Shown: positions 1 to 4,407 of the stretch, in pieces
Numbering within the stretch: position 1 is the first letter of the stretch
Layout of the letters: each line of letters opens with the position of its first letter
Source: Chloroflexota bacterium
GTDB lineage: Bacteria; Chloroflexota; Dehalococcoidia; Lucifugimonadales; Australimonadaceae
Assembly (NCBI GenBank): GCA_028874795.1
Contig: JAPPHT010000056.1
Coordinates: 75,560 to 139,559, forward strand
Reading direction: 5' to 3'
Length of the DNA stretch: 64,000 nt
Position numbers and translations under genes: made by a program
The notes under the pieces: generated by a model
What the model was told of the DNA's origin: nothing
Seen by the model: only the letters and a program-made list of their open reading frames with translations
Databases searched by the model: none

Positions 1-1345
1 CCGCCCTCCGCGCCAGGTCCATGAAGAGGACGAGGTCCAACACGATGGGCGCCGCGAGGATGGAGTCCGAGCAGAGGAAGTCGATCTTCATCTGCATGGG
101 ATGCCGCAGCCACCCGAACAGGTCGACGTTGTCCCAGCCCTCCTTCGCGTCCCCGCGCGGCGGGTAGTAGTTGATGCGCACCTTGTGATAGACGTCGCCG
201 TAGAGGTTCGGATACATATCCGGCTGCAGGATGTGCTCCAGCACGCCGAGCTTCGACTCCTCCTTCGTGCGGAAGTTTTCCGGCTCGTCGAGCACTTCAC
301 CGTCGCGGTTGCCGAGGATGTTGGTGGAGAACCAGCCGTTCAGCCCCAGCATGCGCGCCTTCAGCATCGGGCCGATGACGGTCTTCACCAGCGTCTGGCC
401 GGTCTTGAAGTCCTTGCCGCAGATGGGCACGCCCCTGTCTCGCGCGAGCCGTTCGAGCGCCGGTATGTCCACCGTCAGGTTCGGCGCGCCGTTGATGTAC
501 GGCACGCCTTCCTGCAGCGCGGCGTAGGCATAGATCATCGACGGCGCGATGTTGGGGTCGCTCGAGTGCAGCGCGGAGACGAAGCTCTCGATGTCCTGGT
601 GTATCTCTTCCTCGGTAATGAATTTCTCGGTGGACGCGCACCAGATCATCACCAGCCTGTCACAGCCGTTCTCCTCCTTGAACCGGCGCATGTCCTCCCT
701 GATCGTCTCGACCGCATCGAGCTTGCTGCCGACCTGCTTGACGTTCGTACCGTTGATGCGCTTGGCGTAGTCCTGGTCGAACACCGCGGGCATCGGTTCG
801 ATCGCCCTGAGGTAGTCCGCGATCGGCTCGATCTCTTCGTAACGGTCGAGCACGCCTGCCCGGAGCGCGGCCTCGTAGGCGTTGTCCGGTATCGGGTCCC
901 ACGCGCCGAAGACCAGTTGGTCGAGCTCTGCGAGCGGCACGAACTCCTTGATGAGCGGCGCCCGGCTGTCGGTCCGCCTGCCGAGCCGGATCGTCGCCAT
1001 CTGCGTGAGCGACCCGACCGGCTCGCCGGAGCCGCGCCGTATGTGCTCGACGCCTGCGATGACGGTCGACGAGACCGCCCCTAGCCCCACCATCAGGACC
1101 CCGAGCTTGCCGTCCGCCGGCTCGACGCCGTCCACGGTCGACTCCATGAAGTCGCTTGGGTCGAGCGCGATGCCCCGTCTCCGGGCGAGGTCCATGAGCG
1201 TCCCATGCCACTGGGCGGGGATCCTTCCCGTCCTGGCCCAGTGCTGCACGGTGCTCTGGCGTCTGCCCAGCAGGCCCGCCAGCGCGGACTGCCCTCCGAA
1301 GCGTTCGATGATCTGCTTTGCGGTGTTGTGCTGTTGTGTGCTCAT
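1..1345 (-). CDS. ino1: Myo-inositol-1-phosphate synthase with N-terminal Cro/YdaS-like HTH; 3' end runs off the window
   Basis: Manual translation (absent from the ORF track): MSTQQHNTAKQIIERFGGQSALAGLLGRRQSTVQHWARTGRIP...DFMESTVDGVEPADGKLGVLMVGLGAVSSTVIAG...GKDFKTGQTLVKT...WFSTNILGNRDG...DFLCSDSILAAPIVLDL, typical MIPS motifs. Confidence 0.9.
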   Translation of the reverse strand, partial: MSTQQHNTAKQIIERFGGQSALAGLLGRRQSTVQHWARTGRIPAQWHGTLMDLARRRGIALDPSDFMESTVDGVEPADGKLGVLMVGLGAVSSTVIAGVEHIRRGSGEPVGSLTQMATIRLGRRTDSRAPLIKEFVPLAELDQLVFGAWDPIPDNAYEAALRAGVLDRYEEIEPIADYLRAIEPMPAVFDQDYAKRINGTNVKQVGSKLDAVETIREDMRRFKEENGCDRLVMIWCASTEKFITEEEIHQDIESFVSALHSSDPNIAPSMIYAYAALQEGVPYINGAPNLTVDIPALERLARDRGVPICGKDFKTGQTLVKTVIGPMLKARMLGLNGWFSTNILGNRDGEVLDEPENFRTKEESKLGVLEHILQPDMYPNLYGDVYHKVRINYYPPRGDAKEGWDNVDLFGWLRHPMQMKIDFLCSDSILAAPIVLDLVLFMDLARRA

Positions 1346-1353
1346 GGCAGAGC

Positions 1354-1382
1354 AAGCTACCGATAAAATCGTTAGCTGTCAA
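1354..1382 (-). promoter_or_regulatory. Sigma70-type promoter TTGACA-17-TAGCTT overlapped by palindrome AGCTA-C-CGAT-AAA-ATCG-T-TAGCT (1355-1377)
   Basis: Read directly; the -10 lies 8 nt before the ATG and no Shine-Dalgarno is visible. Confidence 0.7.
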
Positions 1383-1391
1383 GCCGGCACG

Positions 1392-2369
1392 TCAGTTGCC
1401 AGCGCCGAGGACGCCCTCTCCGCCGACGGCCCGCAGCGCCTCACTGAAAGCCTCGATGGCCCGGAGCGGGTCTTCGCCCGCAAACTGGACGCGGGCTATG
1501 AAGTGACGGCTCTTCGTCTCCTCAGCGAACGCAAGCGCCCTCGTCGCCGCCTCGCCGGGAGTGCCCGACGCCACCATCGCGTCCACGAGCTGCCGCACCT
1601 GCGCCGACGACAACTTCGATACGGTCGAGACGTCCGCGAGCAGCGGCATCCGTTCCCGCAGCACCCGGGAGAAGACCCTGCTCCGCCGCAACACGTTGGA
1701 GAGCGCGTACTCCGCGGCGCTCTCGTACGCGTGGTCCGGCGAGTCCGCCATGAACACCGGCAGCCCCAGGGCGACCGGGATACGTTCCTCTTCCCGCCCC
1801 GCGGCGCGGGCCCCGGCCTGAACGTGCCCCACCGCGACAGCCGCCACTTCGGGATCGACGCCCACCATCGCGTAGACGCCGTCGGCGGACGCGCCGCCTG
1901 CCTCGAGCATGCCCGGGCTGCTGGCGTTGATGTAGACGGGCACGGAGGGCTCGGACGAGAGCTCGGTCGCCAGCGTCCGCCGGATCGCCTCCGCGGCCTC
2001 CCGCATCTCCGAGACGGTTGCGCCGGGTCTGCCCACGTACTCGACCGCGTTCTGCCCGCTCCCGATAACGAGACGGGCGCGTCCCGGCGCCAGCTCCCCC
2101 AGCGTCGCGGCGAGCGTCGCCAGCATCCGGGTGTTGCGGGAGACCGGGTTGGCGACCGACGGGAAGAGCGTCACGCGTTCCGTGCGCTGGGCGGCGAGCG
2201 CCAGGCGGACGAACACGTCCCTGCCGGTGTGCGGGTGGTCCGGCATCCCCACGCCCGCGAAGCCCAGCTCTTCCGCCCGCACCGCGAACCGCGACGACTC
2301 GGCGAGCGGCTGGTTCGTCGGGTCGTTGACGTCGATGCGCAGGCGCAGTTCCGCTGCGGTGTCGGACAT
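1392..2369 (-). CDS. LLM-class (luciferase-like, probably F420-dependent) oxidoreductase
   Basis: RAEELGF..MPDHPH.GRDVFV.LALAAQRTERV..SVANP..ELAPGR. Confidence 0.85.
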   Translation of the reverse strand: MSDTAAELRLRIDVNDPTNQPLAESSRFAVRAEELGFAGVGMPDHPHTGRDVFVRLALAAQRTERVTLFPSVANPVSRNTRMLATLAATLGELAPGRARLVIGSGQNAVEYVGRPGATVSEMREAAEAIRRTLATELSSEPSVPVYINASSPGMLEAGGASADGVYAMVGVDPEVAAVAVGHVQAGARAAGREEERIPVALGLPVFMADSPDHAYESAAEYALSNVLRRSRVFSRVLRERMPLLADVSTVSKLSSAQVRQLVDAMVASGTPGEAATRALAFAEETKSRHFIARVQFAGEDPLRAIEAFSEALRAVGGEGVLGAGN

Positions 2370-2471
2370 CGAGGCGTGCCTCCCTGGAGATCGCGCTCAC
2401 CATAGCACCCGCAGGCTGCAACGACCGGCGTGCTATGGATCGTCTGAACAAGCTAGGGGCCAACCGTACCC

Positions 2472-2530
2472 GTCATTCCCGCACCGGCAGGGATCCAGCG
2501 TGCGCGGGCAGCACACGGGTTGTGGGGAGC
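2472..2530 (+). repeat. REP-like element GTCATTCCCGC...GG(A/G)ATCCAG with conserved tail
   Basis: Similar to copies at 6098, 24818, 31402, 32779 and 37409. Confidence 0.7.
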
Positions 2531-2541
2531 GAGTGTAATGT

Positions 2542-2580
2542 TGTCATGCTGAGCGGAGCGCAGCGGAGTCGAAGTATCTC
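2542..2580 (+). repeat. TGTCATGCTGAGCGGAGCG...GAAGTATCTC palindromic-repeat arm
   Basis: Resembles the widespread GTCATxCTGAGCGxAGCGAAG-type extragenic repeat; single copy here. Confidence 0.45.
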
Positions 2581-2709
2581 TCAGGGGACGCCCGTTCGTT
2601 CAGAGCATCCCTGAGTACGCGCATCCGGGCTGTGGATCGAGGGGTTCCGGGAACATGGCACCCGCCCCTTTCGCAATCGTCTCCTGTCCGCGTACGCGGG
2701 TCGAGAAGA

Positions 2710-2762
2710 TTGCACTGACCTGGCAGAAGGCATATGGTAGAAAGCGTCGCAGAGATTCTACC
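2710..2762 (+). promoter_or_regulatory. vapBC promoter TTGCAC-17-TATGGT with inverted repeat GGTAGAA-N13-TTCTACC (candidate operator)
   Basis: Read directly; the inverted repeat at 2736-2762 overlaps the -10. Confidence 0.6.
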
Positions 2763-2776
2763 CTGACGGTGCTCCG

Positions 2777-3034
2777 ATGAGCCTGAACATCAAGAATGAG
2801 GAGACCTGCCGGCTGGCGGGTGAACTCGCCGACCTCACCGGCGAGACGATGACCGGCGCGATCACGGTCGCCCTCAAGGAACGCCTGGAGCGCGAAAGGC
2901 ACCAGCGCAGCGTCGAGGAGCGGCTGCGCCGCATACGCGCCATCGCGGAACGCTTCGCGGCGCAGTTCCCCGACAGCGGCCCACCGATAGACCACGCCGA
3001 GCTGCTGTACGACGAGCGAGGCCTGCCGAAGTGA
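2777..3034 (+). CDS. vapB: Type II antitoxin VapB (Rv0623-like)
   Basis: MSLNIKNEETCRLAGELA.LTGETMT.AI..AL.ERL; GTGA overlap with the PIN gene. Confidence 0.9.
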   Translation: MSLNIKNEETCRLAGELADLTGETMTGAITVALKERLERERHQRSVEERLRRIRAIAERFAAQFPDSGPPIDHAELLYDERGLPK

Positions 3035-3429
3035 TCCTGGATGCGTCGGCGGTGGTCGCCATCCTGTTCCGGGAGAGCGATGCGCATCGATACGAGGAGG
3101 CGATAGCTGCCGCACCGTACTGCCGCATGTCAGTAGTCAACTTCGTAGAGGCGGCTATGGTCCTCGAAAGCAGGGACGGCCCGGCAAGAGGAGTGTCCCT
3201 TGATGTGTTCATGGAAACCGCGCACGTGGAAATGACTCCGGTCACCCCAGAGCACGCGTACGCCGCGCGGCAGGCATGGCGGCGCTTCGGCAAGGGCAAC
3301 CACCCTGCGGGGCTGAACTTCGGCGACTGCTTCGCCTACGCCCTCGCGCAGACCAGCGGCGAATCGCTGCTCTTCAAAGGCGGAGACTTCGCACTCACGG
3401 ACGTCGAGGACGCGCTCGCCCAGCAGTGA
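3031..3429 (+). CDS. vapC: PIN-domain toxin VapC
   Basis: ILDASAVVAIL..E; FGKGNHPAGLNFGDCFAYALA; LLFKGGDF. Confidence 0.93.
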   Translation: MILDASAVVAILFRESDAHRYEEAIAAAPYCRMSVVNFVEAAMVLESRDGPARGVSLDVFMETAHVEMTPVTPEHAYAARQAWRRFGKGNHPAGLNFGDCFAYALAQTSGESLLFKGGDFALTDVEDALAQQ

Positions 3430-3579: not shown

Positions 3580-4407
3580 GTGACGGCTGAGCAGAGGGCT
3601 TTGTTCTGCGTGTGGGCCGGGGAGGGCGGCAGGTACGCTGACGCATTCGTCAGGGGCGCGTACGTGGCCATTGGGTGGCCCGAAGTCCAGGACCTGCACA
3701 GGGTGGACTCCTACGATGAACTCCGCGAGCGGCTTCAGGAAGCGTACCCCAACGAGCCCTCGGGACGGGTACGCAACTACCTCGGCCAGATCGGCAACTT
3801 CGTTCTGAAGATGCATATCGGCGACCTCGTCATCACTCCCTGCCCTGACCACGGCCTCTTGCGCGTCGGCGAAGTGATCTCTTATCCGTTCAAGGTCCTG
3901 AATGTAGACGAATCTTCTCCCTATCCCCACAGGCGTAAGGTCGAATGGGGCATGGAACTCCGGCGCTCGGACCTGCCGGACGCCGTCCTGCGCTCGCTGG
4001 GGTCGTCCCAGGCGGTATTCCGCATCGAGGGAGCCGGGGCATGGCTGGAAGCGAACGGATACGCGCCGTTCTCACGGGAGACGGATGGCGGATGGGGCGG
4101 TGCGCCGGACTCGCATGTCCCTGCCCTCCTGGAAGTAGAGCCGCGCGAGGGCTATCGCCTCTGGCTGCGCTACGACAACGGAGTGTGCGGGGAAGTGGAC
4201 ATGTCGGACACTCCCCGAACGGGTGTATTCGCGGCATGGAACGACCGCGTCTTCTTCGCAACCGCACACCTCGACGGATACGGCGCCGTTGTATGGGGCG
4301 AGGATGAGCAGTTGGACGCCTGCGCCGACTATCTCTATATGCGGCTCACCGGCAAGTCTGCGGAGGAACTGATGCCGGGATTGCGGAGTTCACTGACCGA
4401 TGCCTGA
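3580..4407 (+). CDS. Fusion of an Mrr/COG4127-type N-terminal domain with a C-terminal DUF2442 antitoxin domain
   Basis: N-term VWAGEGG..F...YVAIGW..GQIGNFV.KM.IGDLV..PHRRKVEW; C-term EVEPREGYRLWLRYDNG..GEVD..VVWGEDEQLDACADYLY. Confidence 0.7.
   Translation: MTAEQRALFCVWAGEGGRYADAFVRGAYVAIGWPEVQDLHRVDSYDELRERLQEAYPNEPSGRVRNYLGQIGNFVLKMHIGDLVITPCPDHGLLRVGEVISYPFKVLNVDESSPYPHRRKVEWGMELRRSDLPDAVLRSLGSSQAVFRIEGAGAWLEANGYAPFSRETDGGWGGAPDSHVPALLEVEPREGYRLWLRYDNGVCGEVDMSDTPRTGVFAAWNDRVFFATAHLDGYGAVVWGEDEQLDACADYLYMRLTGKSAEELMPGLRSSLTDA

Follow-up and report, generated by a model that had tools for sequence, protein, structure and literature searches.

A Cro-Like Helix-Turn-Helix Fused to myo-Inositol-1-phosphate Synthase in Chloroflexota: A Candidate Autorepressing Enzyme with a Single Operator in Its Own Promoter

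Introduction

PutA of enterobacteria joins an N-terminal DNA-binding domain to a metabolic enzyme and represses its own gene by way of operators in its own promoter. BirA and NadR carry an N-terminal helix-turn-helix (HTH), winged or of the XRE type, fused to an enzyme of the pathway that they regulate, and in BirA the oligomeric state couples catalysis to DNA binding. myo-Inositol-1-phosphate synthase (MIPS) is the committed step to all inositol compounds, and its gene is tightly controlled in yeast and in actinobacteria by separate regulators; in Corynebacterium and Mycobacterium, ino1 is controlled by IpsA, an inositol-sensing regulator of the LacI type. To our knowledge, almost no transcription factors have been characterized in the Chloroflexota. 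Here we analyze a gene from a Chloroflexota bacterium of the class Dehalococcoidia (GenBank assembly GCA_028874795.1, contig JAPPHT010000056.1, positions 75,560 to 139,559; this whole stretch of 64,000 nucleotides is referred to as the window) in which a Cro-like HTH and MIPS share one reading frame, and we propose that the product, HTH-MIPS, is probably an autorepressing enzyme with one target, comparable in kind to PutA, BirA and NadR.

The archaeal riboflavin kinase/regulator RbkR is described as a bifunctional enzyme and transcription factor that was found by comparative genomics (PMC5397151). Neither an HTH-MIPS fusion, nor a MIPS trigger enzyme, nor MIPS autoregulation was found in the literature that we searched, subscription-only literature lying outside the search. 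The N-terminal domain itself has already been catalogued by NCBIfam curators; the HTH-MIPS enzyme-repressor, with its regulator inside the enzyme, would be previously undescribed.

Results

The minus-strand open reading frame from ATG 1345 encodes a single protein of 507 amino acids and, as the original prediction from the letters alone had it, runs without a stop through a Cro-like stretch directly into MIPS. The left edge of the window (G000:C79:75560-139559) truncates the 3' end of the gene, so that 448 amino acids are encoded inside the window and 179 nucleotides (nt) lie beyond it; the flank was fetched and the full gene is L002:15382-16905 (-). Jointly with the autorepression discussed below, we consider it probable that the gene product is a bifunctional protein, a MIPS predicted to be working with an N-terminal Cro-like HTH. 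The features of the gene and its promoter are collected in Table 1.

Table 1. Positions of the HTH-MIPS gene, its promoter elements and a neighboring gene pair within the window
Feature	Position	Strand	Remarks
-35 hexamer TTGACA	1377..1382	-	direct reading; TTGACN conserved upstream of fused homologs
-10 hexamer TAGCTT	1354..1359	-	weak, 3/6 to TATAAT; homolog hexamers at the same place
17-bp operator core TAACGATTTTATCGGTA	1358..1374		consensus TAACGA-N5-TCGTTA; conserved, single exact genome match
Extended 23-nt palindrome AGCTA-A-CGAT-TTT-ATCG-G-TAGCT	1355..1377		9/10 arm positions pair
Start codon ATG	1343..1345	-	8 nt past the -10, without Shine-Dalgarno sequence; inferred start of a leaderless mRNA
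Cro-like HTH domain, residues 10-62	1160..1318	-	NF046037, phmmer, AlphaFold2, Foldseek, pN/pS
Variable linker, residues 67-78, including the non-conserved Met67	1112..1147	-	pN/pS 0.69
MIPS catalytic domain, residues 79-448 inside the window	2..1111	-	PF07994 + PF01658
Rv0623-like antitoxin	2777-3034	+	PF07704, 2.6e-26
PIN-domain protein	3031-3429	+	PF01850, 3e-15

The isolated N-terminal 66 amino acids match the NCBIfam domain NF046037 ("carph-isopro") at 68.0 bits, and the full protein matches it at 63.6 bits over residues 10-62, the cut-off being 38; no paper that explains the family name was found by literature search. Scores against the Pfam models YdaS_toxin (PF15943; 27.6 vs a gathering cut-off of 30) and P22_Cro (PF14549; 23.0 vs 30.2) fall just short, and by these values the domain is related to both families, yet is not classed as a member of either. 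A phmmer search of Protein Data Bank sequences retrieved Cro of the Xylella prophage Xfaso 1 (3bd1) with an E-value of 1.1e-4. The AlphaFold2 model of the domain, built with 55 family members, has a predicted local distance difference test (pLDDT) score of 89 and four helices (8-15, 19-26, 30-39 and 44-57), and its best Foldseek matches are 3bd1 (36% identity over 55 columns) and N15 Cro (2hin, and 6on0, the operator complex) with template modeling scores of 0.60-0.62 and a root-mean-square deviation of 2.3 Å. The modeled domain thus has the predicted all-alpha fold of the Cro type, a four-to-five-helix bundle in which helices 2 and 3 form the HTH, and RQSTVQHWAR is its probable recognition helix. 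At the level of homology, the original assignment of residues 1-65 to a Cro/YdaS-type HTH was right, given the NF046037 score and the match to 3bd1 (E 1e-4).

The enzyme half harbors both Pfam MIPS domains within residues 81-448, PF07994 (2.4e-83, 280.7 bits, cut-off 25) and PF01658 (2.6e-30, 105.2 bits, cut-off 27), and aligns end to end with a MIPS structure, that of BT_1526 (7NWR; E 7e-163, query 73-498 to chain 24-447). The published account of BT_1526 from Bacteroides thetaiotaomicron reports MIPS activity and a tetramer (PMC9246714), and in its text the terms Chloroflexi and helix-turn-helix each occur zero times. The catalytic part is alike in the two proteins; unlike HTH-MIPS, BT_1526 is without a DNA-binding domain. 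The score against TIGR03450 (mycothiol_INO1) is 22.6 bits vs an equivalog threshold of 638, which rules out the actinobacterial/archaeal short type and, judged by these matches, places the enzyme in the long, Bacteroides/eukaryote-like type. It looks intact, with a predicted conversion of glucose-6-phosphate to inositol-3-phosphate with bound NAD+, and as the sole PF01658 match in its own genome (97% complete) it is the only MIPS there.

The 80 best loci among GTDB species representatives were used as a comparison set, 29 of them fused and 51 unfused. Aligning the 90 nt that precede the gene in each fused homolog defined a 17-bp operator core with an A/T-rich N5, and the core in the window has one arm mismatch. 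This core occupies the -35/-10 spacer, its last TA forming the first two bases of the -10 (TAnnnT), while TTGACN sits 2-3 nt before the palindrome in the homologs. Scanning 400 nt upstream and 30 nt into each gene and allowing at most 2 mismatches in 12, we found the operator in 26 of the 29 fused loci, at the same promoter position, and in none of the 51 unfused loci; by our own arithmetic, chance would supply ~0.016 hits per locus. The original prediction of a self-regulating enzyme had been open to the objection that homologs might lack the palindrome; it is carried by these fused homologs and missing from the unfused ones. The 23-nt palindrome that it had described is present as well, but relatives share only its inner 17 bp; the three flanking bases at either end (AGC/GCT) are specific to the window and not conserved even in the 93-95% identical L016 and L017.

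A second sample of 151 genomes of the class contained 21 with the N-terminal domain above the cut-off, one copy each. Twenty fetched loci (L173-L192) encode the domain, and 17 are long-type MIPS fusions, in which the operator is found at no more than 2 mismatches in 15 cases and at 3-4 in the other two. Columns A1, C3, G4, G13 and T15 never vary across 23 aligned sites. The right arm is looser (T11 18/23, C12 18/23, T14 17/23), with T11C in 4 sites and T14G in 6, neither compensated in the left arm. The half-site centers lie 11 bp apart, about one helical turn. A general repeat search (seed 6) missed this interrupted palindrome and returned an unrelated GC palindrome at 1376-1395. Two tandem operator copies ~30 nt apart, located some 30-75 nt before the start codon and each followed by a -10-like hexamer, were seen in L026 and L032 (Ktedonobacterales and Chloroflexia), an arrangement that suggests tandem promoters or cooperative binding.

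The operator also appears to have one target per genome. TAACGA-N5-TCGKTA has one exact match in the 3.33-Mb genome, which is this promoter, and 13 strand hits at one mismatch vs 8 for a backwards-pattern control; in the window, 8 matches at up to 2 mismatches compare with 2.1 expected, and those with 0 or 1 mismatch are this site only. Five other genomes of the class were checked. Four of them (G020, G056, G127 and G134) contain a single perfect TAACGA-N5-TCGTTA, placed 30-60 nt ahead of the coordinates of the HTH-MIPS domain; the site of the fifth, G144, is degenerate. A regulon beyond the gene itself was considered and set aside, one-mismatch sites being at control level in the own genome and in the five others. 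The extra site most like the operator, TGACGAAATTATCGTTA in G056, falls within a coding sequence (...DDEIIVIQ...) and was taken as chance. The domain, too, mostly occurs once per genome: the own genome has one copy of NF046037 above the cut-off, and 21 of 401 sampled genomes of the phylum (including the unpublished G185 and G282) carry it, 20 of these as a single copy, with nearly all copies in open frames of about 510-640 amino acids. Taken together, these counts suggest that the operator has a single target, the enzyme's own promoter.

The promoter is read directly as TTGACA, a 17-nt spacer (1376-1360) and TAGCTT, with GCTCTGCC at 1353-1346 between the -10 and the ATG and no purine-rich Shine-Dalgarno sequence, which bears out the original description of this region. 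The preceding gene, a luciferase-like monooxygenase (PF00296; 1392-2369, -), has its stop codon at 1392-1394, 46 nt before the ATG of HTH-MIPS, so that the entire intergenic space constitutes the putative promoter. In the aligned fused homologs, columns -8 to -6 at the -35 read T in 22/23, T in 18/23 and G in 17/23, and the hexamers at the place of the -10 include TAGAAT, TACCAT, TAACAT, TAGGAT, TAAAAT and TACTAT. Among 30 loci the -35/-10 spacer is 17 nt in 15 and 18 nt in 7, and 6-9 nt separate the -10 from the start codon in 23; for 5 further loci in this count, the in-frame start that had been chosen was 9 nt too far upstream. This short spacing from the -10 to the start predicts that the HTH-MIPS mRNA is probably leaderless. 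Sequencing runs listed as containing this sequence comprise 13 of DNA type, mostly labelled sponge metagenome, and none of RNA. A consensus scan of positions 1-3000 returned 0 promoters and 0 terminators, the promoter being missed because TAGCTT matches TATAAT at only three of six positions; the assignment therefore draws on the perfect -35, the spacing and the conservation in homologs, and not on the window alone.

The fusion is old and widespread. Residues 1-70 match 357 proteins (278-888 amino acids) at E ≤ 1e-3, and all 120 listed among these matches harbor MIPS Pfam domains, with N-terminal domains 66-100% identical to the query. The 29 fused loci of the comparison set come from Dehalococcoidia including SAR202, Thermomicrobiales, Ktedonobacterales and Chloroflexia, together with one Dormiibacterota (L015) and one metagenome-assembled genome (MAG) of Acidobacteriota (L034), and the 51 unfused loci from Acidobacteriota, Gemmatimonadota, Myxococcota, Actinomycetota and others. 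In all 29 the frame passes from the first domain into the second without a stop or frameshift, L034 being truncated further on in the gene. Averaged over 435 pairs, the ratio of nonsynonymous to synonymous differences (pN/pS) comes to 0.25 in residues 9-66 and 0.26 in the enzyme, compared with 0.69 in the linker, and in close pairs the N-terminal domain shows pN of 0.008-0.027 vs pS of 0.16-0.59 (ratio 0.03-0.05). By this measure purifying selection acts on the HTH as strongly as on the enzyme, and the HTH appears to be selected as protein.

A tree of the catalytic domains from a quick maximum-likelihood run (78 rows; L034, L073 and L077 were left out as too short) placed all 29 fused rows inside one clade of 31 with a support of 96 in the Shimodaira-Hasegawa-like approximate likelihood ratio test. 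The two unfused rows within this clade are Actinomycetota. One of them, L037:2983-4356(+), starts with a remnant of the last helix of the N-terminal domain, RGVILETGDFVE, and is without the operator, which looks like, and is consistent with, a secondary loss of HTH and operator together.

Gene neighborhoods were compared among 23 fused loci and the own locus: only MIPS itself clusters, and the neighborhood is not conserved past the closest relatives, so that the conserved unit, as judged from these loci, is promoter, operator and gene. The genes downstream of MIPS, outside the window (L002:12205-15023, -), encode a GNAT acetyltransferase, a NUDIX hydrolase, two HAD phosphatases and then a histidine kinase. 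An HAD phosphatase in this position could act as an inositol-phosphate phosphatase. The downstream HAD genes are common only to the own locus and its two closest relatives, and the GNAT/NUDIX/HAD/HAD neighbors therefore give no general clue.

Domains of the NF046037 type also occur on other proteins. A library of 1.84 billion representative proteins gave 638 matches, and in the best 150 of them the domain stands alone or before MEDS, P63C, 3,4-dihydroxy-2-butanone-4-phosphate synthase (DHBP synthase, RibB), DUF218, rhodanese, IalB, RhuM, Mrr_cat or metallo-beta-lactamase. Individual proteins (P0144, P0161, P0169, P0136, P0211 and P0250) have it before a MEDS sensor, DUF218, rhodanese or an Apyc1-like metallo-beta-lactamase, and P0162, P0215 and P0257 carry several tandem copies. 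In three Dehalococcoidia loci, L178:319-1668(-), L183:283-1683(-) and L188, it is fused to the short MIPS type. The family scan covered L178 and L183 (TIGR03450 ~555 bits, NF046037 64-66 bits), and L188 was assigned by N-terminal likeness to L178. Compared with the window enzyme, these short-type enzymes give no match in L178 and L188 and a 28%-identical partial match in L183. Upstream of all three stand two or three palindromes of another sequence, AC(C/T)AA-N5-TTGGT-like, beside TTGAC and TAT elements. The 80 best relatives of the short-type L178 protein all lack the N-terminal domain, and a tblastn search was also empty.

In a Dehalococcoidales MAG (L127:1430-2400, +) the domain is fused to RibB, and between TTGACA and the ATG lie two palindromes, TACCAACTATCTTGTTA and TAACAAATTAGTTGGTA, of the form TACCAA-N5-TTGTTA directly after TTGACA and TAACAA-N5-TTGGTA directly before the ATG. 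A simple code relating recognition helix to half-site was tried and rejected: the same KRQSTVQHWA pairs with TAACGA in the MIPS fusions and with TAACAA/TACCAA in the RibB fusion. Few as they are, the short-type and RibB loci suggest that HTH, operator and leaderless promoter may travel as a cassette.

Two further features of the window lie on the plus strand beyond the monooxygenase gene. The overlapping pair at 2777-3429 (Table 1) is typical of a VapBC-type toxin-antitoxin module. An open reading frame of 275 amino acids at 3580-4407 has a C-terminal DUF2442 (4.3e-9) as its sole family match, its N-terminal 180 amino acids being without one.

Discussion

We propose, as the probable reading of these observations, that two HTH domains joined by the MIPS oligomer would bind the 17-bp palindrome TAACGA-N5-TCGKTA in the enzyme's own promoter; BT_1526, the nearest relative of the enzyme with a solved structure, is a tetramer. 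With transcription starting at the ATG, the palindrome would span about -13 to -29, and its occupancy would block RNA polymerase at the -35/-10 spacer and at the beginning of the -10, so that the enzyme would repress its own synthesis. Promoter, operator, regulator and enzyme would then form one compact leaderless unit with a single target, which in the absence of any ligand would simply keep the enzyme concentration constant. We infer specific binding as a dimer from the conserved 17-bp palindrome and its 11-bp half-site spacing. Two properties of a trigger enzyme can be recognized at the level of sequence: both domains appear to be under selection on one polypeptide, given one open frame in 29 loci and pN/pS of 0.25 and 0.26, and a candidate cognate operator lies in the gene's own promoter, given its co-occurrence with the fusion, its fixed position and its uniqueness in the genome. 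The self-regulating trigger enzyme of the original prediction thus gains support from co-occurrence, placement, selection and uniqueness.

Several observations weigh against this reading. The Pfam Cro and YdaS models stay under their gathering cut-offs, and the Foldseek E-values of the HTH domain are weak (0.09-0.5), weak values being expected of 66 residues; the full-length AlphaFold2 model is poor (pLDDT 60.7) and uninformative on the placement of the HTH relative to the enzyme. Three of the 29 fused loci have degraded operators with 3-4 mismatches (L006 and L021 recognizable at 3, L011 degenerate), and in L018 the operator is degenerate at the usual place, a good copy lying ~100 nt further upstream. 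The weak -10 in the window went unrecognized by the consensus scanner, which called no promoter. DNA binding, the direction of regulation (taken here as repression, not activation), the oligomeric state and the position of the transcription start are all deduced from sequence comparison, and an internal start giving an HTH-less isoform keeps some weight.

It is unlikely, in our estimate, that a translation start near the domain junction is used as well, or even predominantly, which would leave most MIPS without the HTH and make the HTH-containing form a minor regulatory isoform. Unfused relatives do start at about query residues 65-79, the linker is variable, and Met67 (ATG 1147) is present in the window. 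This methionine is, however, limited to the window and its two closest relatives, other homologs having mostly V or T at this position, no Shine-Dalgarno-like purine run precedes it, and the frame between the domains is uninterrupted in all 29 fused loci. A start at Met67 alone leaves the conservation of the N-terminal domain unexplained, and the possibility recognized from the outset, that translation starts at Met 1147 only, is judged unlikely in view of the restricted occurrence of Met67 and of the N-terminal pN/pS (0.25 vs 0.26). A second isoform would in any case modify the autorepressor model, not replace it.

Activation in place of repression, with HTH-MIPS binding the palindrome and stimulating its own promoter, or remodeling it like a MerR-type spacer binder to offset a weak -10, seems distinctly unlikely. 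The site is in the spacer, where MerR-family activators also bind, and the three-of-six match of the -10 together with the empty promoter scan would suit a promoter in need of help. Yet the spacers are of the optimal 17-18 nt, vs the 19-20 nt typical of MerR promoters, and many homologs pair a good -10 (TAGAAT, TAAAAT, TACTAT) with the same operator. Positive autoregulation by way of a site overlapping the -10 is, moreover, unusual, and the closest structural relatives of the domain are Cro repressors.

We regard as very unlikely a scheme in which the palindrome is the site of another, unlinked regulator or a promoter element, and the HTH does something else, such as making protein contacts, tethering the protein to the nucleoid or binding at another locus. 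The occurrence of one helix with somewhat different half-sites in the MIPS and RibB fusions would fit such a scheme. Against it stand the strict co-occurrence of HTH and palindrome (26/29 vs 0/51), their joint loss in L037, the pairing of a single HTH gene with a single perfect site in each genome, and the retention of the operator in L015 and L034, loci assigned to other phyla.

Least credible of all is the view that the palindrome is an RNA or DNA hairpin, a terminator of the upstream monooxygenase gene or a 5'-untranslated-region element, and the fusion incidental: the upstream gene does end 46 nt before the ATG with no terminator detected there, and the 23-nt palindrome is a hairpin in the minimum-free-energy fold, but a fold z-score of -1.43 (14 of 200 shuffles fold as well) led us to reject this reading, no T-run follows the hairpin, the palindrome stays while the upstream neighbor varies among fused loci, and it is their sequence that the arms conserve, with mismatches left uncompensated and covariation absent, a pattern that fits a protein-binding site and not a hairpin.

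Beyond autorepression itself, a wider proposal is that the HTH, its operator palindrome and a leaderless promoter constitute a portable self-repression cassette, placed in Chloroflexota on at least three unrelated enzymes (long MIPS, short MIPS and RibB), and that in HTH-MIPS a MIPS ligand (NAD+/NADH, glucose-6-phosphate or inositol-3-phosphate) or the oligomeric state alters the presentation of the two HTH domains, which would make the enzyme a metabolite-sensing transcription factor of its own gene. We offer this combined proposal tentatively and think it rather doubtful as a whole; modulation of DNA binding by NAD+, glucose-6-phosphate or inositol phosphate is speculative. The same HTH family occurs on a non-orthologous second MIPS type and on RibB, with palindromes in the promoter of each fusion gene, which suggests a general and simple route to enzyme autoregulation, and the HTH-MIPS unit would be a natural, compact single-gene module of negative feedback. 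Because the predicted operator and promoter and the protein are all short and well delimited, the proposal lends itself to direct tests in vitro or in E. coli, with no need to grow the source organism.

Comparison with Known Systems

The closest solved relatives of the HTH domain are Xfaso 1 Cro and N15 Cro, the latter solved on a palindromic operator. These are free-standing, self-dimerizing phage or prophage proteins of ~65 amino acids, whereas the domain described here is the N-terminus of a 507-residue chromosomal enzyme; presumably, dimerization of the HTH domains is supplied by the enzyme part.

PutA is a catabolic enzyme with a ribbon-helix-helix and several operators for putA and putP, from which it is released by proline-driven membrane binding; HTH-MIPS has a Cro-type HTH on a biosynthetic enzyme, one palindrome within the -35/-10 spacer and probably a leaderless mRNA. 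BirA and NadR repress other operons of their pathways, with a reaction intermediate or cofactor as corepressor, whereas the only perfect operator of HTH-MIPS lies at its own promoter in five genomes (its own, G020, G056, G127 and G134). RbkR belongs to another domain of life, has a different enzyme and DNA-binding domain, and controls a regulon of riboflavin genes, where HTH-MIPS would control only itself. IpsA is a separate regulator of another family; in HTH-MIPS the regulator would be built into the enzyme. HTH-MIPS thus differs from PutA, BirA, NadR and RbkR in its enzyme, its predicted all-alpha Cro fold, its apparent single self-target and an operator embedded in a probably leaderless promoter.

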